Shown here piece by piece: positions 11,461 to 51,030 of a stretch of 64,000 nt of DNA (positions within the stretch are counted from its first letter, which is position 1; each line of letters opens with the position of its first letter). The notes under the pieces were generated by a model. It saw nothing but the letters and a program-made list of their open reading frames with translations, made no database searches and had not been told where the DNA came from. Where the stretch lies: the NCBI GenBank assembly GCA_964016885.1, contig OZ024742.1, positions 361,088,001 through 361,152,000 of the forward strand, read 5' to 3'. This stretch comes from Eledone cirrhosa (lineage: Eukaryota). The translations under genes and the position numbers were made by a program.

Positions 11461-14400
11461 ATTATTATATTTTGACAGAATCGTTCAGGCATCAGACAAA
11501 GGCCATGGCAATATTATTATATTTTGACAGAATCATTCAGACATCAGACAAAGTGTATGGCAATATTATTATATTTTGACAGAATCCTTCAGGCATCAGA
11601 CAAAGGCCATGGCAATATTATTATATTTTGACAGAATCATTCAGACATCAGACAAAGTGTTTGGCAATATTATTATATTTTGACAGAATCCTTCAGGCAT
11701 CAGACAAAGGCCATGGCAATATTATTATATTTTGACAGAATCATTCAGACATCAGACAAAGTGTATGGCAATATTATTATATTTTGACAGAATCCTTCAG
11801 GCATCAGACAAAGGCCATGGCAATATTATTATATTTTGACAGAATCATTCAGGCATCAGACAAGGGCCATGGCAATATTATTATATTTTGACAGAATCAT
11901 TCAGACATCAGACAAAGGCCATGGCGATATTATTATATTTTGACAGAATCCTTCAGGCATCAGACAAAGGCCATGGCAATATTATTATATTTTGACAGAA
12001 TCATTCAGACATCAGACAAAGTGTATGGCAATATTATTATATTTTGACAGAATCCTTCAGGCATCAGACAAAGGCATGGCTATATTATTATATTTTGATA
12101 GAATCATTCAGACATCAGACAAAGTGTATGGCAATATTATTATATTTTGAAAGAATCCTTCAGGCATCAGACAAAGGCCATGGCAATATTATTATACTTT
12201 GACAGAATCCTTTAGGCATCAGACAAAGGCTATGGAATATTATTATATTTTGACAGAATCCTTCAGACATCAGACAAAGGCTATGGAATATTATTATATT
12301 TTGACAGAATCGTTCAGACATCAGACAAAGTGTATGGCAATATTATTATATTTTGACAGAATCCTTCAGGCATCAGACAAAGGCCATGGCAATATTATTA
12401 TATTTTGACAGAATCATTCAGACATCAGACAAAGTGTATGGCAATATTATTATATTTTGACAGAATCCTTCAGGCATCAGACAAAGGCATGGCAATATTA
12501 TTATATTTTGATAGAATCATTCAGACATCAGACAAAGTGTATGGCAATATTATTATATTTTGACAGAATCCTTCAGGAATCAGACAAAGGCATGGCAATA
12601 TTATTATATTTTGACAGAATCCTTCAGACAAAGGCCATGGCAATATTATTATATTTTGACAGAATCCTTCAGACATCAGACAAAGGCATGGCAATATTAT
12701 TATATTATGACAGAATCCTTTAGGCATCAGACAAAGGCTATGGAATATTATTATATTTTGACAGAATCCTTCAGACATCAGACAAAGACTATGGCAATAT
12801 TATTATATTATGACAGAATCCTTTAGGCATCAGACAAAGGCTATGGAATATTATTATATTTTGATAGAATCCTTCAGACATCAGACAAAGGCCATGGCAA
12901 TATTATTATATTTTGACAGAATCATTCAGACATCAGACAAAGGCATGGCAATATTATTATATTTTGACAGAATCCTTCAGACATCAGACAAAGGCTATGG
13001 AATATTATTATATTTTGACAGAATCCTTCAGACATCAGACAAAGGCCATGGCAATATTATTATATTTTGACAGAATCCTTCAGACATCAGACAAAGGCAT
13101 GGCAATATTATTATATTTTGACAGAATCCTTCAGACATCAGACAAAGGCATGGCAATATTATTATATTTTGACAGAATCCTTCAGACAAAGGCCATGACA
13201 ATATTATTATATTTTGACAGAATCCTTCAGACAAAGGCCATGGCAATATTATTATATTTTGACAGAATCGTTCAGACATCAGACAAAGGCATGGCAATAT
13301 TATTATATTTTGACAGAATCCTTCAGACAAAGGCCATGGCAATATTATTATATTTTGACAGAATCCTTCAGACAAAGGCCATGGCAATATTATTATATTT
13401 TGACAGAATCCTTCAGACAAAGGCCATGGCAATATTATTATATTTTGACAGAATCCTTCAGATATCAGACAAAGGCTATGGAATATTATCATATTTTGAC
13501 AGAATCCTTCAGACAAAGGCCATGGCAATATTATTATATTTTGACAGAATCATTCAGACATCAGACAAAGGCCATGGCAATATTATTATATTTTGACAGA
13601 ATCCTTCAGACATCAGACAAAGGCCATGGCAATATTATTATATTTTGACAGAATCCTTCAGACATCAAAGACCATGGCAATATTATTATATTTTGACAGA
13701 ATCCTTCAGATATCAGACAAAGGCTATGGAATATTATTATATTTTGACAGAATCCTTCAGACATCAAAGACCATGGCAATATTATTATATTTTGACAGAA
13801 TCCTTCAGACATCAGACAAAGGCATGGAAATATTATTATATTTTGCCAGAATCCTTCAGACATCAGACAAAGGCTATGGAATATTATTATATTTTGACAG
13901 AATCCTTCAGACAAAGGCCATGGCAATATTATTATATTTTGACAGAATCATTCAGACATCAGACAAAGGCATGGAAATATTATTATATTTTGCCAGAATC
14001 CTTCAGACATCAGACAAAGACTATGGCAATATTATTATATTATGACAGAATCCTTTAGGCATCAGACAAAGGCTATGGAATATTATTATATTTTGACAGA
14101 ATCCTTCAGACATCAGACAAAGGCCATGGCAATATTATTGTATTTTGACAGAATCATTCAGACATCAGACAAAGGCATGGCAATATTATTATATTTTGAC
14201 AGAATCCTTCAGACATCAGACAAAGGCTATGGAATATTATTATATTTGACAGAATCCTTCAGACATCAGACAAAGGCCATGGCAATATTATTATATTTTG
14301 ACAGAATCCTTCAGACATCAGACAAAGGCATGGCAATATTATTATATTATGACAGAATCCTTTAGGCATCAGACAAAGGCTATGGAATATTATTATATTT

Positions 14401-17400
14401 TGACAGAATCCTTCAGACATCAGACAAAGACTATGGCAATATTATTATATTATGACAGAATCCTTTAGGCATCAGACAAAGGCTATGGAATATTATTATA
14501 TTTTGACAGAATCCTTCAGACATCAGACAAAGGCCATTGCAATATTATTATATTTTGACAGAATCATTCAGACATCAGACAAAGGCATGGCAATATTATT
14601 ATATTTTGACAGAATCCTTCAGACATCAGACAAAGGCTATGGAATATTATTATATTTTGACAGAATCCTTCAGACATCAGACAAAGGCCATGGCAATATT
14701 ATTATATTTTGACAGAATCCTTCAGACATCAGACAAAGGCATGGCAATATTATTATATTTTGACAGACTCCTTCAGTCATCAGACAAAGGCATGGCAATA
14801 TTATTATATTTTGACAGAATCCTTCAGACAAAGGCCATGGCAATATTATTATATTTTGACAGAATCCTTCAGACAAAGGCCATGGCAATATTATTATATT
14901 TTGACAGAATCGTTCAGACATCAGACAAAGGCATGGCAATATTATTATATTTTGACAGAATCCTTCAGACAAAGGCCATGGCAATATTATTATATTTTGA
15001 CAGAATCCTTCAGATATCAGACAAAGGCTATGGAATATTATCATATTTTGACAGAATCCTTCAGACAAAGGCCATGGCAATATTATTATACTTTGACAGA
15101 ATCATTCAGACATCAGACAAAGGCCATGGCAATATTATTATATTTTGACAGAATCCTTCAGATATCAGACAAAGGCTATGGAATATTATCATATTTTGAC
15201 AGAATCCTTCAGACAAAGGCCATGGCAATATTATTATATTTTGACAGAATCCTTCAGACATCAGACAAAGGCCATGGCAATATTATTATATTTTGACAGA
15301 ATCCTTCAGACATCAAAGACCATGGCAATATTATTATATTTTGACAGAATCCTTCAGATATCAGACAAAGGCTATGGAATATTATTATATTTTGACAGAA
15401 TCCTTCAGACAAAGGCCATGACAATATTATTATATTATGACAGAATCCTTTAGGCATCAGACAAAGGCTATGGAATATTATTATATTTTGACAGAATCCT
15501 TCAGACATCAGACAAAGGCATGGAAATATTATTATATTTTGCCAGAATCCTTCAGACATCAGACAAAGGCTATGGAATATTATTATATTTTGACAGAATC
15601 CTTCAGACAAAGGCCATGGCAATATTATTATATTTTGACAGAATCATTCAGACATCAGACAAAGGCATGGAAATATTATTATATTTTGCCAGAATCCTTC
15701 AGACATCAGACAAAGACTATGGCAATATTATTATATTATGACAGAATCCTTTAGGCATCAGACAAAGGCTATGGAATATTATTATATTTTGACAGAATCA
15801 TTCAGACATCAGACAAAGGCCATGGCAATATTATTGTATTTTGACAGAATCATTCAGACATCAGACAAAGGCATGGCAATATTATTATATTTTGACAGAA
15901 TCCTTCAGACATCAGACAAAGGCTATGGGATATTATTATATTTTGACAGAATCCTTCAGACATCAGACAAAGGCCATGGCAATATTATTATATTTTGACA
16001 GAATCCTTCAGACATCAGACAAAGGCATGGCAATATTATTATATTTTGACAGAATCCTTCAGACATCAGCCAAAGGCATGGCAATATTATTATATTTTGA
16101 CAGAATCCTTCAGACAAAGGCCATGGCAATATTATTATATTTTGACAGAATCCTTCAGACAAAGGCCATGGCAATATTATTATATTTTGACAGAATCCTT
16201 CAGACAAAGGCCATGGCAATATTATTATATTTTGACAGAATCCTTCAGATATCAGACAAAGGCTATGGAATATTATTATATTTTGACAGAATCCTTCAGA
16301 CAAAGGCCATGGCAATATTATTATATTTTGACAGAATCATTCAGACATCAGACAAAGGCCATGGCAATATTATTATATTTTGACAGAATCCTTCAGACAT
16401 CAGACAAAGGCCATGGCAATATTATTATATTTTGACAGAATCCTTCAGATATCAGACAAAGGCTATGGAATATTATTATATTTTGAAAGAATCCTTCAGA
16501 CAAAGGCCATGGCAATATTATTATATTTTGACAGAATCAGTCAGACATCAGACAAAGTGTATGGCAATATTATTATATTTTGACAGAATCCTTCAGGCAT
16601 CAGACAAAGGCATGGCAATATTATTATATTTTGATAGAATCATTCAGACATCAGACAAAGTGTATGGCAATATTATTATATTTTGACAGAATCCTTCAGA
16701 CATCAGACAAAGGCCATGGCAATATTATTATATTTTGACAGAATCCTTCAGACATCAGACAAAGGCATGGCAATATTATTATATTTTGACAGAATCCTTC
16801 AGACATCAGACAAAGGCATGGCACTATTATTATATTTTGACAGAATCCTTCAGACAAAGGCCATGGCAATATTATTATATTTTGACAGAATCCTTCAGAC
16901 AAAGGCCATGGCAATATTATTATATTTTGACAGAATCGTTCAGACATCAGACAAAGGCATGGCAATATTATTATATTTTGACAGAATCCTTCAGACAAAG
17001 GCCATGGCAATATTATTATATTTTGACAGAATCCTTCAGACAAAGGCCATGGCAATATTATTATATTTTGACAGAATCCTTCAGACAAAGGCCATGGCAA
17101 TATTATTATATTTTGACAGAATCCTTCAGATATCAGACAAAGGCTATGGAATATTATTATATTTTGACAGAATCCTTCAGACAAAGGCCATGGCAATATT
17201 ATTATATTTTGACAGAATCATTCAGACATCAGACAAAGGCCATGGCAATATTATTATATTTTGACAGAATCCTTCAGACATCAGACAAAGGCCATGGCAA
17301 TATTATTATATTTTGACAGAATCCTTCAGACATCAAAGACCATGGCAATATTATTATATTTTGACAGAATCCTTCAGATATCAGACAAAGGCTATGGAAT

Positions 17401-20400
17401 ATTATTATATTTTGACAGAATCCTTCAGACAAAGGCCATGGCAATATTATTATATTATGACAGAATCCTTTAGGCATCAGACAAAGGCTATGGAATATTA
17501 TTATATTTTGACAGAATCCTTCAGACATCAGACAAAGGCATGGAAATATTATTATATTTTGCCAGAATCCTTCAGACATCAGACAAAGGCTATGGAATAT
17601 TATTATATTTTGAGAGAATCCTTCAGACAAAGGCCATGGCAATATTATTATATTTTGACAGAATCATTCAGACACCAGACAAAGGCATGGAAATATTATT
17701 ATATTTTGCCAGAATCCTTCAGACATCAGACAAAGACTATGGCAATATTATTATATTATGACAGAATCCTTTAGGCATCAGACAAAGGCTATGGAATATT
17801 ATTATATTTTGACAGAATCCTTCAGACATCAGACAAAGGCCATGGCAATATTATTGTATTTTGACAGAATCATTCAGACATCAGACAAAGGCATGGCAAT
17901 ATTATTATATTTTGACAGAATCCTTCAGACATCAGACAAAGGCTATGGAATATTATTATATTTTGACAGAATCCTTCAGACATCAGACAAAGGCCATGGC
18001 AATATTATTATATTTTGACAGAATCCTTCAGACATCAGACAAAGGCATGGCAATATTATTATATTTTGACAGAATCCTTCAGACAAAGGCCATGGCAATA
18101 TAATTATATTTTGACAGAATCGTTCAGACATCAGACAAAGGCATGGCAATATTATTATATTTTGACAGAATCCTTCAGACAAAGGCCATGGCAATATTAT
18201 TATATTTTGATAGAATCCTTCAGACAAAGGCCATGGCAATATTATTATATTTTGACAGAATCCTTCAGATATCAGACAAAGGCTATGGAATATTATTATA
18301 TTTTGACAGAATCCTTCAGACAAAGGCCATGGCAATATTATTATATTTTGACAGAATCATTCAGACATCAGACAAAGGCCATGGCAATATTATTATATTT
18401 TGACAGAATCCTTCAGACAAAGGCCATGGCAATATTATTATATTTTGACAGAATCCTTCAGACAAAGGCCATGGCAATATTATTATATTTTGACAGAATC
18501 CTTCAGACAAAGGCCATGGCAATATTATTATATTTTGACAGAATCCTTCAGATATCAGACAAAGGCTATGGAATATTATTATATTTTGACAGATTCCTTC
18601 AGACAAAGGCCATGGCAATATTATTATATTTTGACAGAATCATTCAGACATCAGACAAAGGCCATGGCAATATTATTATATTTTGACAGAATCCTTCAGA
18701 CATCAGACAAAGGCCATGGCAATATTATTATATTTTGACAGAATCCTTCAGACATCAGACAAAGTGTATGGCAATATTATTATATTTTGACAGAATCATT
18801 CAGACATCAGACAAAGGCCATGGCAATATTATTATATATTGACAGAATCCTTCAGACATCAGACAAAGGCCATGGCAATATTATTATATTTTGACAGAAT
18901 CCTTCAGACATCAAAGACCATGGCAATATTATTATATTTTGACAGAATCCTTCAGATATCAGACAAAGGCTATGGAATATTATTATATTTTGACAGAATC
19001 CTTCAGACAAAGGCCATGGCAATATTATTATATTTTGACAGAATCATTCAGACATCAGACAAAGTGTATGGCAATATTATTATATTTTGACAGAATCCTT
19101 CAGGCATCAGACAAAGGCATGGCAATATTATTATATTTTGATAGAATCATTCAGACATCAGACAAAGTGTATGGCAATATTATTATATTTTGACAGAATC
19201 CTTCAGACATCAGACAAAGGCCATGGCAATATTATTATATTTTGACAGAATCCTTCAGACATCAAAGACCATGGCAATATTATTATATTTTGACAGAATC
19301 CTTCAGATATCAGACAAAGGCTATGGAATATTATTATATTTTGACAGAATCCTTCAGACAAAGGCCATGGCAATATTATTATATTATGACAGAATCCTTT
19401 AGGCATCAGACAAAGGCTATGGAATATTATTATATTTTGACAGAATCCTTCAGACATCAGACAAAGGCATGGAAATATTATTATATTTTGCCAGAATCCT
19501 TCAGACATCAGACAAAGGCTATGGAATATTATTATATTTTGACAGAATCCTTCAGACAAAGGCCATGGCAATATTATTATATTTTGACAGAATCCTTCAG
19601 ACATCAAAGACCATGGCAATATTATTATATTTTGACAGAATCGTTCAGACATCAGACAAAGGCATGGCAATATTATTATATTTTGACAGAATCCTTCAGA
19701 CAAAGGCCATGGCAATATTATTATATTTTGACAGAATCCTTCAGATATCAGACAAAGGCTATGGAATATTATCATATTTTGACAGAATCCTTCAGACAAA
19801 GGCCATGGCAATATTATTATACTTTGACAGAATCATTCAGACATCAGACAAAGGCCATGGCAATATTATTATATTTTGACAGAATCCTTCAGATATCAGA
19901 CAAAGGCTATGGAATATTATCATATTTTGACAGAATCCTTCAGACAAAGGCCATGGCAATATTATTATATTTTGACAGAATCCTTCAGACATCAGACAAA
20001 GGCCATGGCAATATTATTATATTTTGACAGAATCCTTCAGACATCAAAGACCATGGCAATATTATTATATTTTGACAGAATCCTTCAGATATCAGACAAA
20101 GGCTATGGAATATTATTATATTTTGACAGAATCCTTCAGACAAAGGCCATGACAATATTATTATATTATGACAGAATCCTTTAGGCATCAGACAAAGGCT
20201 ATGGAATATTATTATATTTTGACAGAATCCTTCAGACATCAGACAAAGGCATGGAAATATTATTATATTTTGCCAGAATCCTTCAGACATCAGACAAAGG
20301 CTATGGAATATTATTATATTTTGACAGAATCCTTCAGACAAAGGCCATGGCAATATTATTATATTTTGACAGAATCATTCAGACATCAGACAAAGGCATG

Positions 20401-23400
20401 GAAATATTATTATATTTTGCCAGAATCCTTCAGACATCAGACAAAGACTATGGCAATATTATTATATTATGACAGAATCCTTTAGGCATCAGACAAAGGC
20501 TATGGAATATTATTATATTTTGACAGAATCATTCAGACATCAGACAAAGGCCATGGCAATATTATTGTATTTTGACAGAATCATTCAGACATCAGACAAA
20601 GGCATGGCAATATTATTATATTTTGACAGAATCCTTCAGACATCAGACAAAGGCTATGGGATATTATTATATTTTGACAGAATCCTTCAGACATCAGACA
20701 AAGGCCATGGCAATATTATTATATTTTGACAGAATCCTTCAGACATCAGACAAAGGCATGGCAATATTATTATATTTTGACAGAATCCTTCAGACATCAG
20801 CCAAAGGCATGGCAATATTATTATATTTTGACAGAATCCTTCAGACAAAGGCCATGGCAATATTATTATATTTTGACAGAATCCTTCAGACAAAGGCCAT
20901 GGCAATATTATTATATTTTGACAGAATCCTTCAGACAAAGGCCATGGCAATATTATTATATTTTGACAGAATCCTTCAGATATCAGACAAAGGCTATGGA
21001 ATATTATTATATTTTGACAGAATCCTTCAGACAAAGGCCATGGCAATATTATTATATTTTGACAGAATCATTCAGACATCAGACAAAGGCCATGGCAATA
21101 TTATTATATTTTGACAGAATCCTTCAGACATCAGACAAAGGCCATGGCAATATTATTATATTTTGACAGAATCCTTCAGATATCAGACAAAGGCTATGGA
21201 ATATTATTATATTTTGAAAGAATCCTTCAGACAAAGGCCATGGCAATATTATTATATTTTGACAGAATCAGTCAGACATCAGACAAAGTGTATGGCAATA
21301 TTATTATATTTTGACAGAATCCTTCAGGCATCAGACAAAGGCATGGCAATATTATTATATTTTGATAGAATCATTCAGACATCAGACAAAGTGTATGGCA
21401 ATATTATTATATTTTGACAGAATCCTTCAGACATCAGACAAAGGCCATGGCAATATTATTATATTTTGACAGAATCCTTCAGACATCAGACAAAGGCATG
21501 GCAATATTATTATATTTTGACAGAATCCTTCAGACATCAGACAAAGGCATGGCACTATTATTATATTTTGACAGAATCCTTCAGACAAAGGCCATGGCAA
21601 TATTATTATATTTTGACAGAATCCTTCAGACAAAGGCCATGGCAATATTATTATATTTTGACAGAATCGTTCAGACATCAGACAAAGGCATGGCAATATT
21701 ATTATATTTTGACAGAATCCTTCAGACAAAGGCCATGGCAATATTATTATATTTTGACAGAATCCTTCAGACAAAGGCCATGGCAATATTATTATATTTT
21801 GACAGAATCCTTCAGACAAAGGCCATGGCAATATTATTATATTTTGACAGAATCCTTCAGATATCAGACAAAGGCTATGGAATATTATTATATTTTGACA
21901 GAATCCTTCAGACAAAGGCCATGGCAATATTATTATATTTTGACAGAATCATTCAGACATCAGACAAAGGCCATGGCAATATTATTATATTTTGACAGAA
22001 TCCTTCAGACATCAGACAAAGGCCATGGCAATATTATTATATTTTGACAGAATCCTTCAGACATCAAAGACCATGGCAATATTATTATATTTTGACAGAA
22101 TCCTTCAGATATCAGACAAAGGCTATGGAATATTATTATATTTTGACAGAATCCTTCAGACAAAGGCCATGGCAATATTATTATATTATGACAGAATCCT
22201 TTAGGCATCAGACAAAGGCTATGGAATATTATTATATTTTGACAGAATCCTTCAGACATCAGACAAAGGCATGGAAATATTATTATATTTTGCCAGAATC
22301 CTTCAGACATCAGACAAAGGCTATGGAATATTATTATATTTTGAGAGAATCCTTCAGACAAAGGCCATGGCAATATTATTATATTTTGACAGAATCATTC
22401 AGACACCAGACAAAGGCATGGAAATATTATTATATTTTGCCAGAATCCTTCAGACATCAGACAAAGACTATGGCAATATTATTATATTATGACAGAATCC
22501 TTTAGGCATCAGACAAAGGCTATGGAATATTATTATATTTTGACAGAATCCTTCAGACATCAGACAAAGGCCATGGCAATATTATTGTATTTTGACAGAA
22601 TCATTCAGACATCAGACAAAGGCATGGCAATATTATTATATTTTGACAGAATCCTTCAGACATCAGACAAAGGCTATGGAATATTATTATATTTTGACAG
22701 AATCCTTCAGACATCAGACAAAGGCCATGGCAATATTATTATATTTTGACAGAATCCTTCAGACATCAGACAAAGGCATGGCAATATTATTATATTTTGA
22801 CAGAATCCTTCAGACAAAGGCCATGGCAATATAATTATATTTTGACAGAATCGTTCAGACATCAGACAAAGGCATGGCAATATTATTATATTTTGACAGA
22901 ATCCTTCAGACAAAGGCCATGGCAATATTATTATATTTTGATAGAATCCTTCAGACAAAGGCCATGGCAATATTATTATATTTTGACAGAATCCTTCAGA
23001 TATCAGACAAAGGCTATGGAATATTATTATATTTTGACAGAATCCTTCAGACAAAGGCCATGGCAATATTATTATATTTTGACAGAATCATTCAGACATC
23101 AGACAAAGGCCATGGCAATATTATTATATTTTGACAGAATCCTTCAGACAAAGGCCATGGCAATATTATTATATTTTGACAGAATCCTTCAGACAAAGGC
23201 CATGGCAATATTATTATATTTTGACAGAATCCTTCAGACAAAGGCCATGGCAATATTATTATATTTTGACAGAATCCTTCAGATATCAGACAAAGGCTAT
23301 GGAATATTATTATATTTTGACAGATTCCTTCAGACAAAGGCCATGGCAATATTATTATATTTTGACAGAATCATTCAGACATCAGACAAAGGCCATGGCA

Positions 23401-26400
23401 ATATTATTATATTTTGACAGAATCCTTCAGACATCAGACAAAGGCCATGGCAATATTATTATATTTTGACAGAATCCTTCAGACATCAGACAAAGTGTAT
23501 GGCAATATTATTATATTTTGACAGAATCATTCAGACATCAGACAAAGGCCATGGCAATATTATTATATATTGACAGAATCCTTCAGACATCAGACAAAGG
23601 CCATGGCAATATTATTATATTTTGACAGAATCCTTCAGACATCAAAGACCATGGCAATATTATTATATTTTGACAGAATCCTTCAGATATCAGACAAAGG
23701 CTATGGAATATTATTATATTTTGACAGAATCCTTCAGACAAAGGCCATGGCAATATTATTATATTTTGACAGAATCATTCAGACATCAGACAAAGTGTAT
23801 GGCAATATTATTATATTTTGACAGAATCCTTCAGGCATCAGACAAAGGCATGGCAATATTATTATATTTTGATAGAATCATTCAGACATCAGACAAAGTG
23901 TATGGCAATATTATTATATTTTGACAGAATCCTTCAGACATCAGACAAAGGCCATGGCAATATTATTATATTTTGACAGAATCCTTCAGACATCAAAGAC
24001 CATGGCAATATTATTATATTTTGACAGAATCCTTCAGATATCAGACAAAGGCTATGGAATATTATTATATTTTGACAGAATCCTTCAGACAAAGGCCATG
24101 GCAATATTATTATATTATGACAGAATCCTTTAGGCATCAGACAAAGGCTATGGAATATTATTATATTTTGACAGAATCCTTCAGACATCAGACAAAGGCA
24201 TGGAAATATTATTATATTTTGCCAGAATCCTTCAGACATCAGACAAAGGCTATGGAATATTATTATATTTTGACAGAATCCTTCAGACAAAGGCCATGGC
24301 AATATTATTATATTTTGACAGAATCCTTCAGACATCAAAGACCATGGCAATATTATTATATTTTGACAGAATCCTTCAGATATCAGACAAAGGCTATGGA
24401 ATATTATTATATTTTGACAGAATCCTTCAGACAAAGGCCATGGCAATATTATTATATTTTGACAGAATCATTCAGACATCAGACAAAGTGTATGGCAATA
24501 TTATTATATTTTGACAGAATCCTTCAGGCATCAGACAAAGGCATGGCAATATTATTATATTTTGATAGAATCATTCAGACATCAGACAAAGTGTATGGCA
24601 ATATTATTATATTTTGACAGAATCCTTCAGACATCAGACAAAGGCCATGGCAATATTATTATATTTTGACAGAATCCTTCAGACATCAAAGACCATGGCA
24701 ATATTATTATATTTTGACAGAATCCTTCAGATATCAGACAAAGGCTATGGAATATTATTATATTTTGACAGAATCCTTCAGACAAAGGCCATGGCAATAT
24801 TATTATATTATGACAGAATACTTTAGGCATCAGACAAAGGCTATGGAATATTATTATATTTTGACAGAATCCTTCAGGCATCAGACAAAGGCCATGGCAA
24901 TGTTATTATATTTTGACAGAATCATTCAGACATCAGACAAAGACATGGAAATATTATTATATTTTGCCAGAATCCTTCAGACATCAGACAAAGGCTATGG
25001 AATGTTATTATATTTTGACAGAATCCTTCAGACATCAGACAAAGGCCATGGCAATATTATTATATTTTGACAGAACCATTCAGACATCAGACAAAGTGTA
25101 TGGCAATATTATTATATTTTGACAGAATCCTTCAGGCATCAGAGAAAGGCATGGCAATATTATTATATTTTGACAGAATCCTTTAGGCATCAGACAAAGG
25201 CTATGGAATATTATTATATTTTGACAGAATCCTTCAGACATCAGACAAAGGCTATGGAATATTATTATATATTGACAGAATCGTTCAGGCATCAGACAAA
25301 GGCCATGGCAATATTATTATATTTTGACAGAATCATTCAGACATCAGGCAAAGTGTATGGCAATATTATTATATTTTGACAGAATCCTTCAGGCATCAGA
25401 CAAAGGCATGGCAATATTATTATATTTTGACAGAATCCTTCAGACAAAGGCCATGCCAATATTATTATATTTTGACAGAATCCTTCAGACATCAGACAAA
25501 GGCTATGGAATATTATTATATTTTGACAGAGTCCTTCAGACATCAAAGACCATGGCAATATTATTATATTTTGACAGAATCCTTCAGACATCAGACAAAG
25601 ACTATGGCAATATTATTATATTATGACAGAATCCTTTAGGCATCAGACAAAGGCTATGGAATATTATTATATTTTGACAGAATCCTTCAGACATCAGACA
25701 AAGGCCATGGCAATATTATTATATTTTGACAGAATCATTCAGACATCAGACAAAGGCATGGCAATATTATTATATTTTGACAGAATCCTTCAGACATCAG
25801 ACAAAGGCTATGGAATATTATTATATTTTGACAGAATCCTTCAGACATCAGACAAAGGCCATGGCAATATTATTATATTTTGACAGAATCCTTCAGACAT
25901 CAGACAAAGGCATGGCAATATTATTATATTTTGACAGAATCCTTCAGACATCAGACAAAGGCATGGCAATATTATTATATTTTGACAGAATCCTTCAGAC
26001 AAAGGCCATGGCAATATTATTATATTTTGACAGAATCCTTCAGACGAAGGCCATGGCAATATTATTATATTTTGACAGAATCGTTCAGACATTAGACAAA
26101 AGCATGGCAATATTATTATATTTTGACAGAATCCTTCAGACAAAGGCCATGGCAATATTATTATATTTTGACAGAATGCTTCAGACATCAGACAAAGGCA
26201 TGGCAATATTATTATATTATGACAGAATCCTTTAGGCATCAGACAAAGGCTATGGAATATTATTATATTTTGACAGAATCCTTCAGACATCAGACAAAGA
26301 CTATGGCAATATTATTATATTATGACAGAATCCTTTAGGCATCAGACAAAGGCTATGGAATATTATTATATTTTGACAGAATCCTTCAGACATCAGACAA

Positions 26401-38400: not shown

Positions 38401-41400
38401 AATATTATTATATTTTGACAGAATCCTTCAGACATCAGACAAAGGCTATGGAATATTATTATACTTTGACAGAATCCTTCAGACATCAGACAAAGGCCAT
38501 GACAATATTATCATATTTTGACAGAATCCTTCAGACAAAGGCCATGGCAATATTATTATATTTTGTCAAAATCCTTCAGATATCAGACAAAGGCTATGGA
38601 ATATTATTATATTTTGACAGAATCCTTCAGACAAAGGCCATGGCAATATTATTATATTATGACAGAATCCTTCAGGCATCAGACAAAGGCATGGAAATAT
38701 TATTATATTTTGCCAGAATCCTTCAGACATCAGACAAAGGCTTTGGAATATTATTATATTTTGACAGAATCCTTCAGACAAAGGCCATGGCAATATTATT
38801 ATATTTTGACAGAATCATTCAGACATCAGACAAAGGCATGGAAATATTATTATATTTTGCCAGAATCCTTCAGACATCAGACAATGGCTATGGAATGTTA
38901 TTATATTTTGACAGAATCCTTCAGACATCAGACAAAGGCCATGGCAATATTATTATATTTTGACAGAATCCTTCAGACAAAGGCCATGGCAATATTATTA
39001 TATTTTGACAGAATCATTCAGACATCAGACAAAGTGTATGGCAATATTATTATATTTTGACAGAATCCTTCAGGCATCAGACAAAGGCATGGCAATATTA
39101 TTATATTTTGATAGAATCATTCAGACATCAGACAAAGTGTATGGCAATATTATTATATTTTGACAGAATCCTTCAGGCATCAGACAAAGGCATGGCAATA
39201 TTATTATATTTTGACAGAATCCTTTAGGCATCAGACAAAGGCTATGGAATATTATTATATTTTGACAGAATCCTTCAGACATCAGACAAAGGCTATGGAA
39301 TATTATTATATTTTGACAGAATCGTTCAGGCATCAGACAAAGGCCATGGCAATATTATTATATTTTGACAGAATCATTCAGACATCAGACAAAGTGTATG
39401 GCAATATTATTATATTTTGACAGAATCCTTCAGGCATCAGACAAAGGCCATGGCAATATTATTATATTTTGACAGAATCATTCAGACATCAGACAAAGTG
39501 TATGGCAATATTATTATATTTTGACAGAATCCTTCAGGCATCAGACAAAGGCCATGGCAATATTATTATATTTTGACAGAATCATTCAGACATCAGACAA
39601 AGTGTATGGCAATATTATTGTATTTTGACAGAATCCTTCAGGCATCAGACAAAGGCATGGCAATATTATTATATTTTGACAGAATCCTTCAGACAAAGGC
39701 CATGGCAATATTATTATATTTTGACAGAATCCTTCAGACATCAGACAAAGGCATGGCAATATTATTATATTATGACAGAATCCTTTAGGCATCAGACAAA
39801 GGCTATGGAATATTATTATATTTTGACAGAATCCTTCAGACATCAGACAAAGACTATGGCAATATTATTATATTATGACAGAATCCTTTAGGCATCAGAC
39901 AAAGGCTATGGAATATTATTATATTTTGACAGAATCCTTCAGACATCAGACAAAGGCCATGGCAATATTATTATATTTTGACAGAATCCTTCAGACATCA
40001 GACAAAGGCATGGCAATATTATTATATTTTGACAGAATCCTTCAGACATCAGACAAAGGCATGGCAATATTATTATATTTTGACAGAATCCTTCAGACAA
40101 TCGCCATGGCAATATTATTATATTTTGACAGAATCCTTCAGACAAAGGCCATGGCAATATTATTATATTTTGACAGAATCCTTCAGACAAAGGCCATGGC
40201 AATATTATTATATTTTGACGGAATCCTTCAGATATCAGACAAAGGCTATGGAATATTATTATATTTTGACAGATTCCTTCAGACAAAGGCCATGGCAATA
40301 TTATTATATTTTGACAGAATCATTCAGACAAAGGCCATAGCAATATATATTATATTATGACAGAATCCTTTAGGCATCAGCAAAGGCTATGGAATATTAT
40401 TATATTTTGACAGAATCCTTCAGACATCAGACAAAGGCATGGAAATATTATTATATTTTGCCAGAATCCTTCAGACATCAGACAAAGGCTATGGAATGTT
40501 ATTATATTTTGACAGAATCCTTCAGACATCAGACAAAGGCCATGGCAATATTATTATATTTTGACAGAATCCTTCAGACATCAGACAAAGGCATGGCAAT
40601 ATTATTATATTTTGACAGAATCCTTCAGACAAAGGCCATGGCAATATTATTATATTTTGACAGAATCGTTCAGACATCAGACAAAGGCATGGCAATATTA
40701 TTATATTTTGACAGAATCCTTCAGACATCAGACAAAGGCCATGGCAATATTATTATATTTTGACAGAATCCTTCAGACAAAGGCCATGGCAATATTATTA
40801 TATTTTGACAGAATCCTTCAGACATCAGACAAAGGCTATGGAATATTATTATATTTTGACAGAATCCTTCAGACATCAGACAAAGGCCATGGCAATATTA
40901 TTATATTTTGACAGAATCCTTCAGACATCAGACAAAGGCATGGCAATATTATTATATTTTGACAGAATCCTTCAGACATCAGACAAAGGCTATGGAATAT
41001 TATTATACTTTGACAGAATCCTTCAGACATCAGACAAAGGCCATGGCAATATTATCATATTTTGACAGAATCCTTCAGACAAAGGCCATGGCAATATTAT
41101 TATATTTTGACAGAATCCTTCAGACAAAGGCCATGGCAATATTATTATATTTTGACAGAATCCTTCAGATATCAGACAAAGGCTATGGAATATTATTATA
41201 TTTTGACAGAATCCTTCAGACAAAGGCCATGGCAATATTATTATATTATGACAGAATCCTTCAGGCATCAGACAAAGGCATGGAAATATTATTATATTTT
41301 GCCAGAATCCTTCAGACATCAGACAAAGGCTTTGGAATATTATTATATTTTGACAGAATCCTTCGGACAAAGGCCATGGCAATATTATTATATTTCGACA

Positions 41401-44400
41401 GAATCATTCAGACATCAGACAAAGGCATGGAAATATTATTATATTTTGCCAGAATCCTTCAGACATCAGACAATGGCTATGGAATGTTATTATATTTTGA
41501 CAGAATCCTTCAGACATCAGACAAAGGCCATGGCAATATTATTATATTTTGACAGAATCCTTCAGACATCAGACAAAGGCATGGCAATATTATTATATTT
41601 TGACAGAATCCTTCAGACAAAGGCCATGGCAATATTATTATATTTTGACAGAATCATTCAGACATCAGACAAAGTGTATGGCAATATTATTATATTTTGA
41701 CAGAATCCTTCAGGCATCAGACAAAGGCATGGCAATATTATTATATTTTGATAGAATCATTCAGACATCAGACAAAGTGTATGGCAATATTATTATATTT
41801 TGACAGAATCCTTCAGGCATCAGACAAAGGCATGGCAATATTATTATATTTTGACAGAATCATTCAGACATCAGACAAAGTGTATGGCAATATTATTGTA
41901 TTTTGACAGAATCCTTCAGGCATCAGACAAAGACATGGCAATATTATTATATTTTGACAGAATCCTTCAGACATCAGACAAAGGCATGGCAATATTATTA
42001 TATTATGACAGAATCCTTTAGGCATCAGACAAAGGCTATGGAATATTATTATATTTTGACAGAATCCTTCAGACATCAGACAAAGGCTATGGAATATTAT
42101 TATATTTTGACAGAATCGTTCAGGCATCAGACAAAGGCCATGGCAATATTATTATATTTTGACAGAATCATTCAGACATCAGACAAAGTGTATGGCAATA
42201 TTATTATATTTTGACAGAATCCTTCAGGCATCAGACAAAGGCCATGGCAATATTATTATATTTTGACAGAATCATTCAGACATCAGACAAAGTGTATGGC
42301 AATATTATTATATTTTGACAGAATCCTTCAGGCATCAGACAAAGGCGATGGCAATATTATTATATTTTGACAGAATCATTCAGACATCAGACAAAGGCAT
42401 GGAAATATATTATATTTTGCCAGAATCCTTCAGACATCAGACAAAGGCTATGGAATGTTATTATATTTTGACGGAATCCTTCAGACATCAGACAAAGGCC
42501 ATGGCAATATTATTATATTTTGACAGAATCCTTCAGACATCAGACAAAGGCATGGCAATATTATTATATTTTGACAGAATCCTTCAGACAAAGGCCATGG
42601 CAATATTATTATATTTTGACAGAATCGTTCAGACATCAGACAAAGGCATGGCAATATTATTATATTTTGACAGAATCCTTCAGACATCAGACAAAGGCCA
42701 TGGCAATATTATTATATTTTGACAGAATCCTTCAGACAAAGGCCATGGCAATATTATTATATTTTGACAGAATCCTTCAGACATCAGACAAAGGCTATGG
42801 AATATTATTATATTTTGACAGAATCCTTCAGACATCAGACAAAGGCCATGGCAATATTATTATATTTTGACAGAATCCTTCAGACATCAGACAAAGGCAT
42901 GGCAATATTATTATATTTTGACAGAATCCTTCAGACATCAGACAAAGGCTATGGAATATTATTATACTTTGACAGAATCCTTCAGACATCAGACAAAGGC
43001 CATGGCAATATTATCATATTTTGACAGAATCCTTCAGACAAAGGCCATGGCAATATTATTATATTTTGACAGAATCCTTCAGACAAAGGCCATGGCAATA
43101 TTATTATATTTTGACAGAATCCTTCAGATATCAGACAAAGGCTATGGAATATTATTATATTTTGACAGAATCCTTCAGACAAAGGCCATGGCAATATTAT
43201 TATATTATGACAGAATCCTTCAGGCATCAGACAAAGGCATGGAAATATTATTATATTTTGCCAGAATCCTTCAGACATCAGACAAAGGCTTTGGAATATT
43301 ATTATATTTTGACAGAATCCTTCAGACAAAGGCCATGGCAATATTATTATATTTCGACAGAATCATTCAGACATCAGACAAAGGCATGGAAATATTATTA
43401 TATTTTGCCAGAATCCTTCAGACATCAGACAATGGCTATGGAATGTTATTATATTTTGACAGAATCCTTCAGACATCAGACAAAGGCCATGGCAATATTA
43501 TTATATTTTGACAGAATCCTTCAGACATCAGACAAAGGCATGGCAATATTATTATATTTTGACAGAATCCTTCAGACAAAGGCCATGGCAATATTATTAT
43601 ATTTTGACAGAATCATTCAGACATCAGACAAAGTGTATGGCAATATTATTATATTTTGACAGAATCCTTCAGGCATCAGACAAAGGCATGGCAATATTAT
43701 TATATTTTGATAGAATCATTCAGACATCAGACAAAGTGTATGGCAATATTATTATATTTTGACAGAATCCTTCAGGCATCAGACAAAGGCATGGCAATAT
43801 TATTATATTTTGACAGAATCATTCAGACATCAGACAAAGTGTATGGCAATATTATTGTATTTTGACAGAATCCTTCAGGCATCAGACAAAGACATGGCAA
43901 TATTATTATATTTTGACAGAATCCTTCAGACATCAGACAAAGGCATGGCAATATTATTATATTATGACAGAATCCTTTAGGCATCAGACAAAGGCTATGG
44001 AATATTATTATATTTTGACAGAATCCTTCAGACATCAGACAAAGGCTATGGAATATTATTATATTTTGACAGAATCGTTCAGGCATCAGACAAAGGCCAT
44101 GGCAATATTATTATATTTTGACAGAATCATTCAGACATCAGACAAAGTGTATGGCAATATTATTATATTTTGACAGAATCCTTCAGGCATCAGACAAAGG
44201 CCATGGCAATATTATTATATTTTGACAGAATCATTCAGACATCAGACAAAGTGTATGGCAATATTATTATATTTTGACAGAATCCTTCAGGCATCAGACA
44301 AAGGCGATGGCAATATTATTATATTTTGACAGAATCATTCAGACATCAGACAAAGTGTATGGCAATATTATTGTATTTTGACAGAATCCTTCAGGCATCA

Positions 44401-47400
44401 GACAAAGACATGGCAATATTATTATATTTTGACAGAATCCTTCAGACAAAGGCCATGGCAATATTATTATATTTTGACAGAATCCTTCAGACATCAGACA
44501 AAGGCATGGCAATATTATTATATTATGACAGAATCCTTTAGGCATCAGACAAAGGCTATGGAATATTATTATATTTTGACAGAATCCTTCAGACATCAGA
44601 CAAAGACTATGGCAATATTATTATATTATGACAGAATCCTTTAGGCATCAGACAAAGGCTATGGAATATTATTATATTTTGACAGAATCCTTCAGACATC
44701 AGACAAAGGCCATGGCAATATTATTATATTTTGACAGAATCATTCAGACATCAGACAAAGGCATGGCAATATTATTATATTTTGACAGAATCCTTCAGAC
44801 ATCAGACAAAGGCTATGGAATATTATTATATTTTGACAGAATCCTTCAGACATCAGACAAAAACCATGGCAATATTATTATATTTTGACAGAATCCTTCA
44901 GACATCAGACAAAGGCATGGCAATATTATTATATTTTGACAGAATCCTTCAGACATCAGACAAAGGCATGGCAATATTATTATATTTTGACAGAATCCTT
45001 CAGACAATCGCCATGGCAATATTATTATATTTTGACAGAATCCTTCAGACAAAGGCCATGGCAATATTATTATATTTTGACAGAATCCTTCAGACAAAGG
45101 CCATGGCAATATTATTATATTTTGACGGAATCCTTCAGATATCAGACAAAGGCTATGAAATATTATTATATTTTGACAGAATCCTTCAGACAAAGGCCAT
45201 AGCAATATTATTATATTTTGACAGAATCATTCAGACATCAGACAAAGGCCATGGCAATATTATTATATTTTGACAGAATCCTTCAGACATCAGACAAAGG
45301 CCATGGCAATATTATTATATTTTGACAGAATCCTTCAGACATCAAAGACCATGGCAATATTATTATATTTTGACAGAATCCTTCAGATATCAGACAAAGG
45401 CTATGGAATATTATTATATTTTGACAGAATCCTTTAGACAAAGGCCATGGCAATATTATTATATTTTGACAGAATCATTCAGACATCAAAGACCATGGCA
45501 ATATTATTATATTTTGACAGAATCCTTCAGATATCGGACAAAGGCTATGGAATATTATTATATTTTGACAGAATCCTTCAGACAAAGGCCATAGCAATAT
45601 TATTATATTATGACAGAATCCTTTAGGCATCAGACAAACGCTATGGAATATTATTATATTTTGACAGAATCCTTCAGACATCAGACAAAGGCATGGAAAT
45701 ATTATTATATTTTGCCAGAATCCATCAGACATCAGACAAAGGCTATGGAATATTATTATATTTTGACAGAATCCTTCAGACAAAGGCCATGGCAATATTA
45801 TTATATTTTGACGGAATCCTTCAGATATCAGACAAAGGCTATGGAATATTATTATATTTTGACAGAATCCTTTAGACAAAGGCCATGGCAATATTATTAT
45901 ATTTTGACAGAATCATTCAGACATCAGAGAAAGGCCATGGCAATATTATTATATTTTGACAGAATCCTTCAGACATCAGACAAAGGCCATGGCAATATTA
46001 TTATATTTTGACAGAATCCTTCAGACATCAAAGACCATGGCAATATTATTATATTTTGACAGAATCCTTCAGATATCAGACAAAGGCTATGGAATATTAT
46101 TATATTTTGACAGAATCCTTCAGACAAAGGCCATGGCAATATTATTATATTTTGACAGAATCATTCAGGCATCAGACAAAGGCATGGCAATATTATTATA
46201 TTTTTATAGAATCATTCAGACATCAGACAAAGTGTATGGCAATATTATTATATTTTTACAGAATCCTTCAGACATCAGACAAAGGCCATGGCAATATTAT
46301 TATATTTTGACAGAATCCTTCAGACATCAAAGACCATGTCAATATTATTATATTTTGACAGAATCCTTCAGATATCAGACAAAGGCTATGGAATATTATT
46401 ATATTTTGACAGAATCATTCAGACAAAGGCCATAGCAATATTATTATATTATGACAGAATCCTTTAGGCATCAGACAAAGGCTATGGAATATTATTATAC
46501 TTTGACAGAATCCTTCAGACACCAGACAAAGGCATGGAAATATTATTATATTTTGCCAGAATCCTTCAGACATCAGACAAAGGCTATGGAATATTATTAT
46601 ATTTTGACAGAATCCTTCAGACAAAGGCCATGGCAATATTATTATATTTTGACAGAATCATTCAGACATCAGACAAAGGCATGGAAATATATTATATTTT
46701 GCCAGAATCCTTCAGACATCAGACAAAGGCTATGGAATGTTATTATATTTTGACAGAATCCTTCAGACATCAGACAAAGGCCATGGCAATATTATTATAT
46801 TTTGACAGAATCCTTCAGACATCAGACAAAGGCATGGCAATATTATTATATTTTGACAGAATCCTTCAGACAAAGGCCATGGCAATATTATTATATTTTG
46901 ACAGAATCGTTCAGACATCAGACAAAGGCATGGCAATATTATTATATTTTGACAGAATCCTTCAGACATCAGACAAAGGCCATGGCAATATTATTATATT
47001 TTGACAGAATCCTTCAGACATCAGACAAAGGCTATGGAATATTATTATATTTTGACAGAATCCTTCAGACATCAGACAAAGGCATGGCAATATTATTATA
47101 TTTTGACAGAATCCTTCAGACATCAGACAAAGGCTATGGAATATTATTATACTTTGACAGAATCCTTCAGACATCAGACAAAGGCCATGGCAATATTATC
47201 ATATTTTGACAGAATCCTTCAGACAAAGGCCATGGCAATATTATTATATTTTGACAGAATCCTTCAGACAAAGGCCATGGCAATATTATTATATTTTGAC
47301 AGAATCCTTCAGATATCAGACAAAGGCTATGGAATATTATTATATTTTGACAGAATCCTTCAGACAAAGGCCATGGCAATATTATTATATTATGACAGAA

Positions 47401-50400
47401 TCCTTTAGGCATCAGACAAAGGCATGGAAATATTATTATATCTTGCCAGAATCCTTCAGACATCAGACAAAGGCTTTGGAATATTATTATATTTTGACAG
47501 AATCCTTCAGACAAAGGCCATGGCAATATTATTATATTTTGACAGAATCATTCAGACATCAGACAAAGGCATGGAAATATTATTATATTTTGCCAGAATC
47601 CTTCAGACATCAGACAAAGGCTATGGAATGTTATTATATTTTGACAGAATCCTTCAGACATCAGACAAAGGCCATGGCAATATTATTATATTTTGACAGA
47701 ATCCTTCAGACATCAGACAAAGGCATGGCAATATTATTATATTTTGACAGAATCCTTCAGACAAAGGCCATGGCAATATTATTATATTTTGACAGAATCA
47801 TTCAGACATCAGACAAAGTGTATGGCAATATTATTATATTTTGACAGAATCCTTCAGGCATCAGACAAAGGCATGGCAATATTATCATATTTTGATAGAA
47901 TCATTCAGACATCAGACAAAGTGTATGGCAATATTATTATATTTTGACAGAATCCTTCAGGCATCAGACAAAGGCATGGCAATATTATTATATTTTGACA
48001 GAATCATTCAGACATCAGACAAAGTGTATGGCAATATTATTATATTTTGACAGAATCCTTTAGGCATCAGCCAAAGGCCATGGCAATATTATTATATTTT
48101 GACAGAATCATTCAGACATCAGACAAAGTGTATGGCAATATTATTATATTTTGACAGAATCCTTCAGGCATCAGACAAAGGCATGGCAATATTATTATAT
48201 TTTGACAGAATCCTTCAGACAAAGGCCATGGCAATATTATTATATTTTGACAGAATCCTTCAGACATCAGACAAAGACTATGGCAATATTATTATATTAT
48301 GACAGAATCCTTTAGGCATCAGACAAAGGCTATGGAATATTATTATATTTTGACAGAATCCTTCAGACATCAGACAAAGGCCATGGCAATATTATTATAT
48401 TTTGACAGAATCATTCAGACATCAGACAAAGGCATGGCAATATTATTATATTTTGACAGAATCCTTCAGACATCAGACAAAGGCTATGGAATATTATTAT
48501 ATTTTGACAGAATCCTTCAGACATCAGACAAAGGCCATGGCAATATTATTATATTTTGACAGAATCCTTCAGACATCAGACAAAGGCATGGCAATATTAT
48601 TATATTTTGACAGAATCCTTCAGACATCAGACAAAGGCATGGCAATATTATTATATTTTGACAGAATCCTTCAGACAATCGCCATGGCAATATTATTATA
48701 TTTTGACAGAATCCTTCAGACAAAGGCCATGGCAATATTATTATATTTTGACAGAATCCTTCAGACAAAGGCCATGGCAATATTATTATATTTTGACGGA
48801 ATCCTTCAGATATCAGACAAAGGCTATGGAATATTATTATATTTTGACAGAATCCTTCAGACAAAGGCCATAGCAATATTATTATTTTTTGACAGAATCA
48901 TTCAGACATCAGACAAAGGCCATGGCAATATTATTATATTTTGACAGAATCCTTCAGACATCAGACAAAGGCCATGGCAATATTATTATATTTTGACAGA
49001 ATCCTTCAGACATCAAAGACCATGGCAATATTATTATATTTTGACAGAATCCTTCAGATATCAGACAAAGGCTATGGAATATTATTATATTTTGACAGAA
49101 ACCTTTAGACAAAGGCCATGGCAATATTATTATATTTTGACAGAATCATTCAGACATCAGACAAAGTGTATGGCAATATTATTATATTTTGACAGAATCC
49201 TTCAGGCATCAGACAAAGGCCATGGCAATATTATTATATTTTGACAGAATCCTTCAGGCATCAGACAAAGGCCATGGCAATATTATTATATTTTGACAGA
49301 ATCCTTCAGACATCAAAGACCATGGCAATATTATTATATTTTGACAGAATCCTTCAGATATCAGACAAAGGCTATGGAATATTATTATATTTTGACAGAA
49401 TCCTTCAGACAAAGGCCATAGCAATATTATTATATTATGACAGAATCCTTTAGGCATCAGACAAACGCTATGGAATATTATTATATTTTGACAGAATCCT
49501 TCAGACATCAGACAAAGGCATGGAAATATTATTATATTTTGCCAGAATCCTTCAGACATCAGACAAAGGCTATGGAATATTATTATATTTTGACAGAATC
49601 CTTCAGACAAAGGCCATGGCAATATTATTATATTTTGACAGAATCATTCAGACATCAGACAAAGTGTATGGCAATATTATTATATTTTGACAGAATCCTT
49701 CAGACATCAGACAAAGGCCATGGCAATATTATTATATTTTGACAGAATCCTTCAGACATCAGACAAAGGCATGGCAATATTATTATATTTTGACAGAATC
49801 CTTCAGAGAAAGGCCATGGCAATATTATTATATTTTGACAGAATCGTTCAGACATCAGACAAAGGCATGGCAATATTATTACATTTTGACAGAATCCTTC
49901 AGACATCAGACAAAGGCCATGGCAATATTATTATATTTTGACAGAATCCTTCAGACAAAGACCATGGCAATATTATTATATTTTGACAGAATCCTTCAGA
50001 CATCAGACAAAGGCTATGGAATATTATTATATTTTGACAGAATCCTTCAGACATCAGACAAAGGCCATGGCAATATTATTATATTTTGACAGAATCCTTC
50101 AGACATCAGACAAAGGCATGGCAATATTATTATATTTTGACAGAATCCTTCAGACATCAGACAAAGGCTATGGAATATTATTATACTTTGACAGAATCCT
50201 TCAGACATCAGACAAAGGCCATAGCAATATTATCATATTTTTACAGAATCCTTCAGACAAAGGCCATGGCAATATTATTATATTTTGACAGAATCCTTCA
50301 GACAAAGGCCATGGCAATATTATTATATTTTGACAGAATCCTTCAGATATCAGACAAAGGCTATGGAATATTATTATATTTTGACAGAATCCTTCAGACA

Positions 50401-50854
50401 AAGGCCATGGCAATATTATTATATTTTGACAGAATCATTCAGACATCAGACAAAGGCCATGGCAATATTATTATATTTTGACAGAATCCTCCAGACATCA
50501 GACAAAGGCCATGGCAATATTATTATATTTTGACAGAATTCTTCAGACATCAAAGACCATGGCAATATTATTATATTTTGACAGAATCGTTCAGACAAAG
50601 GCCATGGCAATATTATTATATTTTGACAGAATCGTTCAGACATCAGACAAAGGCTATGGAATATTATTATACTTTGACAGAATTCTTCAGACATCAAAGA
50701 CCATGGCAATATTATTATATTTTGACAGAATCCTTCAGATATCAGACAAAGGCTATGGAATATTATTATATTTTGACAGAATCCTTCAGACAAAGGCCAT
50801 GGCAATATTATTATATTTTGACAGAATCCTTCAGATATCAGACAAAGGCCATGG
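11461..50854 (+). repeat. 39.4-kb satellite; 52-bp consensus ATTATTATATTTTGACAGAATCCTTCAGACATCAGACAAAGGCCATGGCAAT with 51, 48 and 45-bp variants (roughly 790 monomers, estimated from length)
   Basis: Uninterrupted head-to-tail monomers in one orientation; variants GGCATGG (51), CATCAAAGACC (48), loss of a 7-bp CATCAGA (45). Confidence 0.98.
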
Positions 50855-51025
50855 TGATAGTAATAGCTCTTTACATTCTGTATTTAAATAGCATTAATGT
50901 CAACTGTGCTTTTCATATTTCCAAGGTCAATAAACTAAAGGACCAATCAAGGACTGGGTTTGTAATAATCAACATTCCCCTCCTCACAAATTTCTAGTCT
51001 GCTACTAATGTTAGAAATCATTATT
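50855..51025 (+). mobile_element. Degenerate body and tail of a family B SINE, continuous with the last satellite monomer
   Basis: GCTCTTTACATTCTG..TCAACTGTGCTTTTCAT..GGTCAATAAACTAAAGGACCA..TTAGAAATCATTAT aligns with family B copies. Confidence 0.75.
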
Positions 51026-51030
51026 TAACT

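Follow-up and report, generated by a model that had tools for sequence, protein, structure and literature searches.

A 39-kb satellite of decayed SINE heads at a single locus, likely grown in place from one SINE copy

The array and its SINE surroundings

The window, a 64-kb stretch of the Eledone cirrhosa assembly, contains a tandem array at positions 11460–50854 of the forward strand (period 51, 791.9 copies according to TRF). Splitting the array yielded 792 monomers and 146 variants of 45–52 bp (52 bp, n = 235; 51 bp, n = 332; 45 bp, n = 187; 48 bp, n = 30; other, n = 8), and the monomers consist of positions 22–65 of a family-B SINE and an AT-rich flank. The mean pairwise identity of the monomers is 95%, as against 85% for family-B copies compared with their own majority sequence. 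Subvariants alternate along the array in a non-periodic order, and higher-order blocks of 1.5, 2.0 and 4.7 kb are found within it. A 96-monomer block of 4,731 bp is exactly duplicated in tandem (14899–24360, forward strand), which reflects either a very recent unequal exchange or an effect of the assembly. The original prediction took GTGTATGG as the monomer. This variant exists in 39 exact copies but is just the fourth commonest in the array, and it is not the full unit, as it omits the 7–8 bp of AT-rich flank present in every monomer. Open reading frames within it are a side effect of its repetition. The array has 346 NcoI sites and no PstI site, and it lies 4.7% (17.8 Mb) from the end of the contig.

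Both sides of the array are occupied by SINEs of two families, A and B, all on the forward strand. Upstream, a 5'-truncated family-A SINE with a (TAT)n tail (11118–11340; nhmmer model positions 31–248 at 11118–11307; 91% identical to the family-A majority) precedes the 3' half of a second, young family-A SINE (11342–11432; model positions 107–242; 83/89, or 93%, to the family-A majority). The left junction is a degenerate (TAT)n run at 11433–11471, whose last 8–12 bases make up the portion of each monomer outside the SINE. As predicted, the array begins in the (TAT)n run behind the preceding SINE. The last monomer and the right junction (50816–50866) lead into the body of the parent family-B SINE (50855–51029; 81% to the majority), which comprises a decayed B box, the central domain and the tail. 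The tail of the parent is interrupted by a young family-A SINE (51031–51214; 96% to the family-A majority) whose target-site duplication (TSD) of 13 bp was read by eye at 51020–51032 and 51208–51220, and an older headless family-B fragment (51230–51410; model positions 58–243; 67% to the majority) closes the stack. Head-to-tail stacking of these SINEs is very frequent. The second family-A SINE upstream matches its family majority at 93%, whereas the parent body matches its own at 81%. This upstream copy may therefore be younger than the array and need not have donated the TAT part of the monomer.

Family-B identity, single-locus status and promoter decay

As a family-B reference, we used the majority sequence of 27 genomic copies chosen by their SINE body alone. 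Full-length monomers match 44 of its about 232 positions. All eight full-length monomer types scored 33–40 against the reference, where shuffled sequences averaged about 18 and only 0–2 of 1000 reached the score. The 45- and 48-bp deletion variants, together 217 of the 792 monomers, were not significant by themselves (191/1000 and 117/1000 shuffles, respectively, reached the score). Three monomers scored 36–40 against family-B heads and 14–20 against family-A heads. The first monomer is 73% identical to the family-B majority and the parent body 81% (129/160), the latter value being inflated by the way the majority was made, from copies picked for their likeness to the body. The last unit continues collinearly into the B-box region, core and tail, with 50818–51029 corresponding to model positions 22–236. 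Head and body are both of family-B identity, and the predicted alignment of the monomer with a SINE head and its run into the SINE remainder were both borne out.

The parent SINE is tRNA-derived in that the family majority has A and B boxes (each found with no more than one mismatch to a box consensus) and that a simple-repeat tail, TSDs and dispersed copies (39 scored among 1,154 candidates) are present; we take its putative class to be the Nin/Inv-domain SINE superfamily. Neither ARAGORN nor Rfam called a tRNA, and SINE heads usually give no such call. In the terminal copy, neither the A box nor the B box passes the consensus at one mismatch; the A boxes of the array likewise fail, and T4 runs occur at 724 of the 791 monomer junctions. 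These decayed boxes and T4 runs suggest that Pol III probably does not transcribe the array. An array of Pol III A-box heads before one B box had been envisaged; the decayed boxes are there, and a working promoter array is unlikely. The array probably lacks a function; taken alone, it is a tidy but unremarkable case that gives no hint of one.

Genome-wide counts with exact patterns placed the satellite at a single locus. The junction motif has 459 matches in the genome and 459 in the window, all of them in the array, and 288 of the 289 matches to the 16-mer core motif are in the array in forward orientation, the remaining one lying elsewhere in reverse. Two outcomes named beforehand as contrary to the prediction, monomers aligning no better than shuffled controls and the satellite occurring at many loci without the SINE remainder, did not arise. 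In one short-read run, which may derive from the assembly's own sample, the depth at monomer joints was about 150–165 times that of unique flank, and the assembly predicts 162–226 times. Inflation of a genuine array by the assembly is very improbable: the 4,731-bp block repeated without any difference speaks for it, but the 146 variants follow a non-periodic order and the short-read depth is consistent with tens of kilobases.

An unexpanded allele was not found; run X4, from a related organism, gave neither cover of the monomer at 88% nor any long stretch of the unique flank, in contigs that show presence, not absence. One 75-letter contig in run X6, from another organism, is identical to the cycle of the 45-bp variant (depth 6.9, no unique flank) and represents either trace DNA or a short array, which are indistinguishable, so this run carries no weight here. 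Two RAD-seq runs with the same species label contained zero monomer reads, an absence made uninformative by reduced representation.

Origin of the array

Given that an array at a sole locus matches a SINE head and continues into a SINE body, a single inactive SINE copy that expanded where it lay is its likely source. At a probability of roughly 85%, we read the array as 792 decayed SINE heads at one locus that end in one SINE body; it likely arose from one DNA-level duplication of a 52-bp segment, with unequal exchange as the likely means of its later growth. Homology, the collinear end, the single locus and the family-B identity all support the prediction that one family-B SINE had its head amplified in place, as do the higher-order duplications, the 95% mean identity and the short-read depth. 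The segment duplicated once would consist of 8 bp of AT-rich flank and SINE positions 22–65. This first duplication was probably a template slip between the TA-rich stretch behind the head and the TAT run before it. Later growth may have proceeded by unequal exchange or conversion, which the position 4.7% from the contig end may have helped. The age of the first duplication is unreadable because homogenisation extends into the last unit. Secondary structure as a driver was also considered, and none of the z-scores of six folds (−1.9 to +1.1) was convincing.

The case for microhomology in this duplication is weaker than predicted. The TATT said to bound the unit of about 52 bp is absent from the right junction. 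The terminal copy has GGTGATAGTAATAG where the monomers have GGCAATATTATTAT, so that TA alone is exact at both junctions; the direct repeat there is 2 bp exact and 6/8 imperfect, and TATT is found in the family majority and the monomers only. A TATT microhomology can be proposed from the family majority, and its involvement would require that the terminal copy lost 4 bp, whether ahead of the duplication or later.

The head might instead have been duplicated at or through retrotransposition, when a multi-head SINE RNA or a template jump of reverse transcriptase was inserted and later expanded. The genome may contain a SINE form that moves with several heads, since the family-A head array has one junction common to many unlinked, TSD-bounded insertions. 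That junction is without captured flank, whereas the focal monomer includes 8 bp of sequence from beside the insertion and lacks the first 21 positions of the SINE; captured flank and absent 5' leader favour a post-insertion DNA event over an RNA-level event. Moreover, the focal junction and its private substitutions are found nowhere else in the genome, and no TSD around the whole array was seen by eye at its two ends, which leaves retrotransposition unlikely. Even less credit is due to two adjacent insertions, one a fragment of a SINE head and the other a complete copy, that formed a dimer and then expanded. The frequent stacking is in its favour, as are the CA of 555 monomers where the right junction has TG and the one locus (L076) among the 30 examined in which a new SINE immediately follows an old head that is truncated near the same position. 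However, CA and TG are each one step from CG, which one monomer (11923) retains, and private changes up to CCATGG are common to the monomers and the last unit, although homogenisation could mimic this. In addition, no orphan body in matching register adjoins the array, and the fragment at 51230, which is much older, begins at position 58. A DNA-level duplication within one inserted copy is thus the preferred reading.

Sibling arrays and comparison with known systems

The array is not a singular birth record: it is one of a genome-wide class with siblings, and its kind has been published (PMC10702118). Three further family-B head arrays, each with its own junction, have about 9 units of 40 bp, 17 units of 41 bp (both ends of this array showing 5 bp of clean microhomology), and 2,501 units of 50 bp. 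They are built in the same way as the focal array and speak for its proposed origin, as does the family-A array inside a TSD described below. Sibling arrays are numerous in the genome, and one reaches 126 kb. Two of the three family-B siblings on contigs of known length are far from chromosome ends (28% and 49%), a point against that origin. The family-A head array is multi-locus (8,604 junction matches in the genome), and 28 of 30 family-A loci are near chromosome ends. One 34-kb family-A array sits inside a 14-bp TSD, which implies that a single insertion can reach such a size in place. The head as a special hotspot in family B was not established: head junctions occur at 4 places (3 arrays) and those of the comparison SINE regions at 2 and 4 places (one being a 50 bp × 31 array), in a comparison where the search patterns themselves fix where breakpoints can fall.

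We tentatively suggest, as a possibility short of an even chance, that a SINE subfamily here has a tandem-repeat A-box head, retrotransposes in multi-headed form and seeds satellites that, where recombination is high, expand within their own TSDs to sizes of tens of kilobases, with the 39-kb and 126-kb arrays as independent births in a series from 2 to 2,500 units. If so, the multi-head SINE would be a mobile satellite seed outside vertebrates. Short multi-head copies keep their TSDs, so that retrotransposition and ectopic conversion are separable by comparing orthologous sites. Being confined to one locus, the focal array would be a useful marker of how fast arrays grow.

Related systems share parts of this picture. 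In Alu- and B1-derived minisatellites (Ahmed and Liang 2012, PMC3389668; Jurka and Gentles 2006 and Bois et al. 1998, cited there and in PMC6947457), part of a SINE is duplicated in place, including 5' partial repeats beside a whole Alu. They include a 52-bp × 17 array, and short direct repeats are the proposed trigger; the mean copy number reported for the human cases is about 2.3–2.4, compared with 792 here (PMC3389668). In microhomology-mediated tandem duplication, a single-copy segment between short repeats likewise duplicates and may expand (PMC13167724; Haber and Louis 1998, cited in PMC6947457). Sibling L126 (5 bp) fits this description, whereas 2 bp alone are exact at both junctions of the focal locus. 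Site preference also stacks transposable elements head to tail in the double-insertion model (McGurk and Barbash 2018, PMC5932611), in which the satellite unit, as described there, is the whole element rather than a fifth of a SINE.

The focal array is a SINE-derived satellite, a kind already known from reptiles: sSat1–3 were described in squamates by Vassetzky, Kosushkin and Ryskov (2023, PMC10702118). Its unit is shorter than the SINE and homologous to part of it, its 792 monomers, where four define the kind, are arranged head to tail and are far more alike than dispersed SINE copies, and a longer terminal unit extends to the SINE's end. As in the sSat loci described there, the unit is a piece of a tRNA-related SINE, the terminal unit reaches the SINE end, subvariants alternate and long loci are homogeneous (PMC10702118). 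The same paper describes single giant loci (>1,200 monomers in Sceloporus occidentalis), a gecko variant that, like the focal unit, combines a 5' part with extra bases, and multi-locus forms that lean to chromosome ends, a lean that the family-A loci here may share. In contrast to sSat, the units here are 40–52 bp rather than about 67–290 bp, they have an A box without a B box, the extra bases are traceable to local flank, and sibling arrays keep TSDs and reach 126 kb (PMC10702118). We found no report of SINE-derived satellites in cephalopods in a literature search that covered largely open-access papers. The host is not a reptile, and that paper called the range of sSat beyond squamates uncertain, leaving open both the occurrence beyond scaled reptiles and how one unit occupies many loci (PMC10702118). 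What is new here is a SINE-derived satellite outside reptiles together with a full growth series with TSDs; the focal locus and its siblings answer the question of occurrence for a distant animal, likely an octopod, and that of many loci becomes testable.

Identity and origin of the focal array

Within the window (G000:C3:361088001-361152000, on a 378.9-Mb contig of the 3.0-Gb genome, whose repeats suggest an octopod), TRF found a single array at 11460-50854, which we split into 792 monomers representing 146 variants (51 bp, n=332; 52 bp, n=235; 45 bp, n=187; 48 bp, n=30; others, n=8). Mean pairwise identity among the monomers was 95.1% (20,000 random pairs; gap columns excluded). The array displays higher-order structure: a 96-monomer block of 4,731 bp is repeated exactly, and blocks of 1,959 and 1,496 bp are near-exact. 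In the short-read run X1, possibly from the same sample as the assembly, depth was 1,938 at the monomer-to-monomer joint and 11.6-13 in unique flank contigs, a ratio of ~150-165. The three commonest monomer cycles predict a ratio of 162-226, and the size of the array is therefore not mainly an assembly effect. A 27-letter junction motif had 459 genome matches, on one strand only, which equals the 459 in the window; likewise, the 288 forward genome matches of a 16-letter core motif equal the window count, with one reverse match elsewhere, where ~1.4 matches are expected by chance (arithmetic estimate). Thus, the array occupies a single locus.

The original prediction held that this satellite was amplified in place from the A-box head of one SINE through TATT microhomology, with both parental junctions kept. 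A genome search using the right flank and the final monomers as query gave 39 scored copies, of which 30 were fetched; the family-B majority sequence and profile derive from 27 of these, after removal of a duplicate and of two copies whose hit overlapped with the monomer. Among the 10 monomer types tested, all eight full-length types scored 33-40 (shuffle means ~18; 0-2/1000 shuffles as high) and aligned to SINE positions 22-65 (one from 23), in keeping with homology to the SINE head; the 45- and 48-bp types are internally deleted and did not reach significance (191 and 117/1000 shuffles as high). Collinearity with the SINE remainder was also found: the last unit, 50818-51029, aligns unbroken across the B-box region, core and tail of a family-B SINE. 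Three monomers scored 36-40 against the family-B head versus 14-20 against the family-A head, and identity to the family-B majority was 73% for the first monomer and 81% for the body, the latter figure being inflated by copy selection. By these alignments, the head is assigned to family B, as is the body.

Each monomer consists of SINE positions 22-65 plus ~8 bp from the AT-rich run left of the array. After CCATGG, the right array end reads TGATAGTAATAG and the monomers read CAATATTATTAT; the exact match common to both real junctions is TA only, and TAGTAATA and TATTATTA agree at 6/8 positions. TATT is found in the monomers as well as the family majority but not at the right junction, where it may once have stood before a 4-bp deletion removed it from the terminal copy. 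CA occurs in 555 monomers, TG in the terminal copy and CG in one monomer (11923), a pattern that would fit decay of a single ancestral CpG. The start of the array at the tail of the preceding SINE proved less telling than proposed: the AT-rich run does lie there, but that SINE piece is 93% identical to the family-A majority and far younger than the parent, and therefore may have inserted into an already existing TAT run. SINEs of this family often stack head to tail, so the position at a tail is no special sign. Overall, the array is real, single-locus and very likely born in place (probability about 0.85).

The commonest A-box region in the monomers is TGACAGAATCCT (556/792), compared with TGGCAGAATTGT in the family, and a T4 run occurs at 724/791 monomer junctions. 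The heads are decayed, as anticipated, and in the terminal copy the A box and the B box both fail a consensus with one mismatch allowed. The array is predicted from its sequence to be silent for Pol III and is probably inert; folding of the array sequence gave no notable fold.

Neighboring repeats

A second large array lies 7 kb away (58206-64000, continuing to window-equivalent 83917; 22 bp x 1,175, 25.7 kb). It has extreme G skew, grades on its left out of 11- and 18-bp low-complexity repeats, and showed no likeness to the SINE. Another dispersed element, in which 48-50 bp are duplicated internally, lies at 5193-5294 and 54116-54220, with a sibling of 7.7 units downstream (window-equivalent 110557-110924), and an 80-bp x 3.6 repeat at 8448-8735 has one stretch inverted. 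At 1-1020, 1680-2400 and in fetched loci L054-L055, fragments and long ORFs of 767, 938 and 1,028 aa resemble a non-LTR retrotransposon that encodes an endonuclease and a reverse transcriptase, a possible partner LINE.

Related arrays and their spread

The family-B head junction pattern had 13 genome matches at four places (control 0), three of which are arrays that end in a SINE body and have individual junctions: C2:298.19 Mb (40 bp x about 9), C5:92.41 Mb (41 bp x 17, both junctions carrying AAATG) and G000:C7:47835283-47961759 (L153-L156, L167-L176; 50 bp x 2,501, 126.5 kb), the last sitting mid-contig on a 94-Mb contig.

A tandem of family-A heads was met by chance in locus L059, and its junction pattern had 8,604 genome matches (control 0). 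This 45-bp repeat occurs at multiple loci with one shared junction (L089-L118, L132-L142, L184-L213), which, as we read the sequence, joins the SINE 5' end to a point that would fall directly after the anticodon loop in the tRNA-like head. Family-A arrays with 93, 211 and 366 units likewise end in a SINE body. At the 34-kb array C1:3023990-3058019 (L157, L158), whose two ends were fetched and between which junction matches were listed, the same 14 bases (by eye) stand before the first head and behind the tail; lying within one TSD, it proves in-place growth better than the focal locus does. Among the 15 family-A loci inspected, 14 terminate in a body and six are flanked by a repeat of 10-19 bp, including all five with 2-7 heads; at four of the 15, one end lay beyond the fetched DNA or was not found. 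Further flanking repeats measure 17, 15 and 9 bp. A family-A head array of at least 25 kb at G000:C2:21.853-21.878 Mb and beyond (L133-L137, L182, L183) combines 45- and 50-bp units with two different junctions. At G000:C10:30.558-30.576 Mb, five identical SINE-containing units ~4.4 kb apart form a larger tandem repeat.

Arrays arise from further regions of the SINE as well (2 and 8 matches at 2 and 4 places), so a head-specific hotspot is not supported. Central-domain arrays lie at L149 (G000:C24:24.29 Mb; 50 bp x 31) and L147 (C18:21.42 Mb; 44 bp x 5).

A single junction recurring at many TSD-bounded sites points to a possible mobile multi-head SINE. The extra heads may instead have spread by ectopic conversion into SINEs already in place, which would leave the TSDs intact as well. 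Among the first 100 of 824 CpG-intact junction matches (C1-C3 complete), 28/30 family-A multi-head loci, merged by hand and including two C2 loci 6 kb apart that are possibly one, fall in the outer 12.5% of their contig, versus 4/27 ordinary family-A heads (Fisher p = 8e-10; 4/28 with the omitted interior control C3:124.6 Mb) and 1/25 family-B bodies. In an age-matched single-head control, 2/6 were distal (p = 0.003), or 1/5 without its source locus (p = 0.001). Insertion alone would hardly produce this bias, which suggests a role for recombination in keeping, growing or even spreading the extra heads. The focal array is distal (4.7%), whereas the family-B arrays on C7 (49%) and C2 (28%) are interior.

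Comparison with known SINE-derived satellites

PMC3389668, PMC6947457 and PMC13167724 treat minisatellites derived from Alu and B1 together with microhomology-led duplication, and PMC5932611 treats double insertion. In the parts consulted of the literature searched, including PMC4758252, PMC12988792, PMC12692304 and PMC3531059, we found no report of SINE-derived arrays of this design in cephalopods. PMC10702118 describes squamate satellites built of partial-SINE units, with variants that alternate, a terminal unit that continues to the end of the SINE, a subtelomeric bias and, in one case, a solitary locus of >1,200 monomers; it also questions whether such satellites exist outside squamates. 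The focal array shares the architecture described there and thus belongs to a known kind, the SINE-derived satellites; its value lies in the class to which it points.
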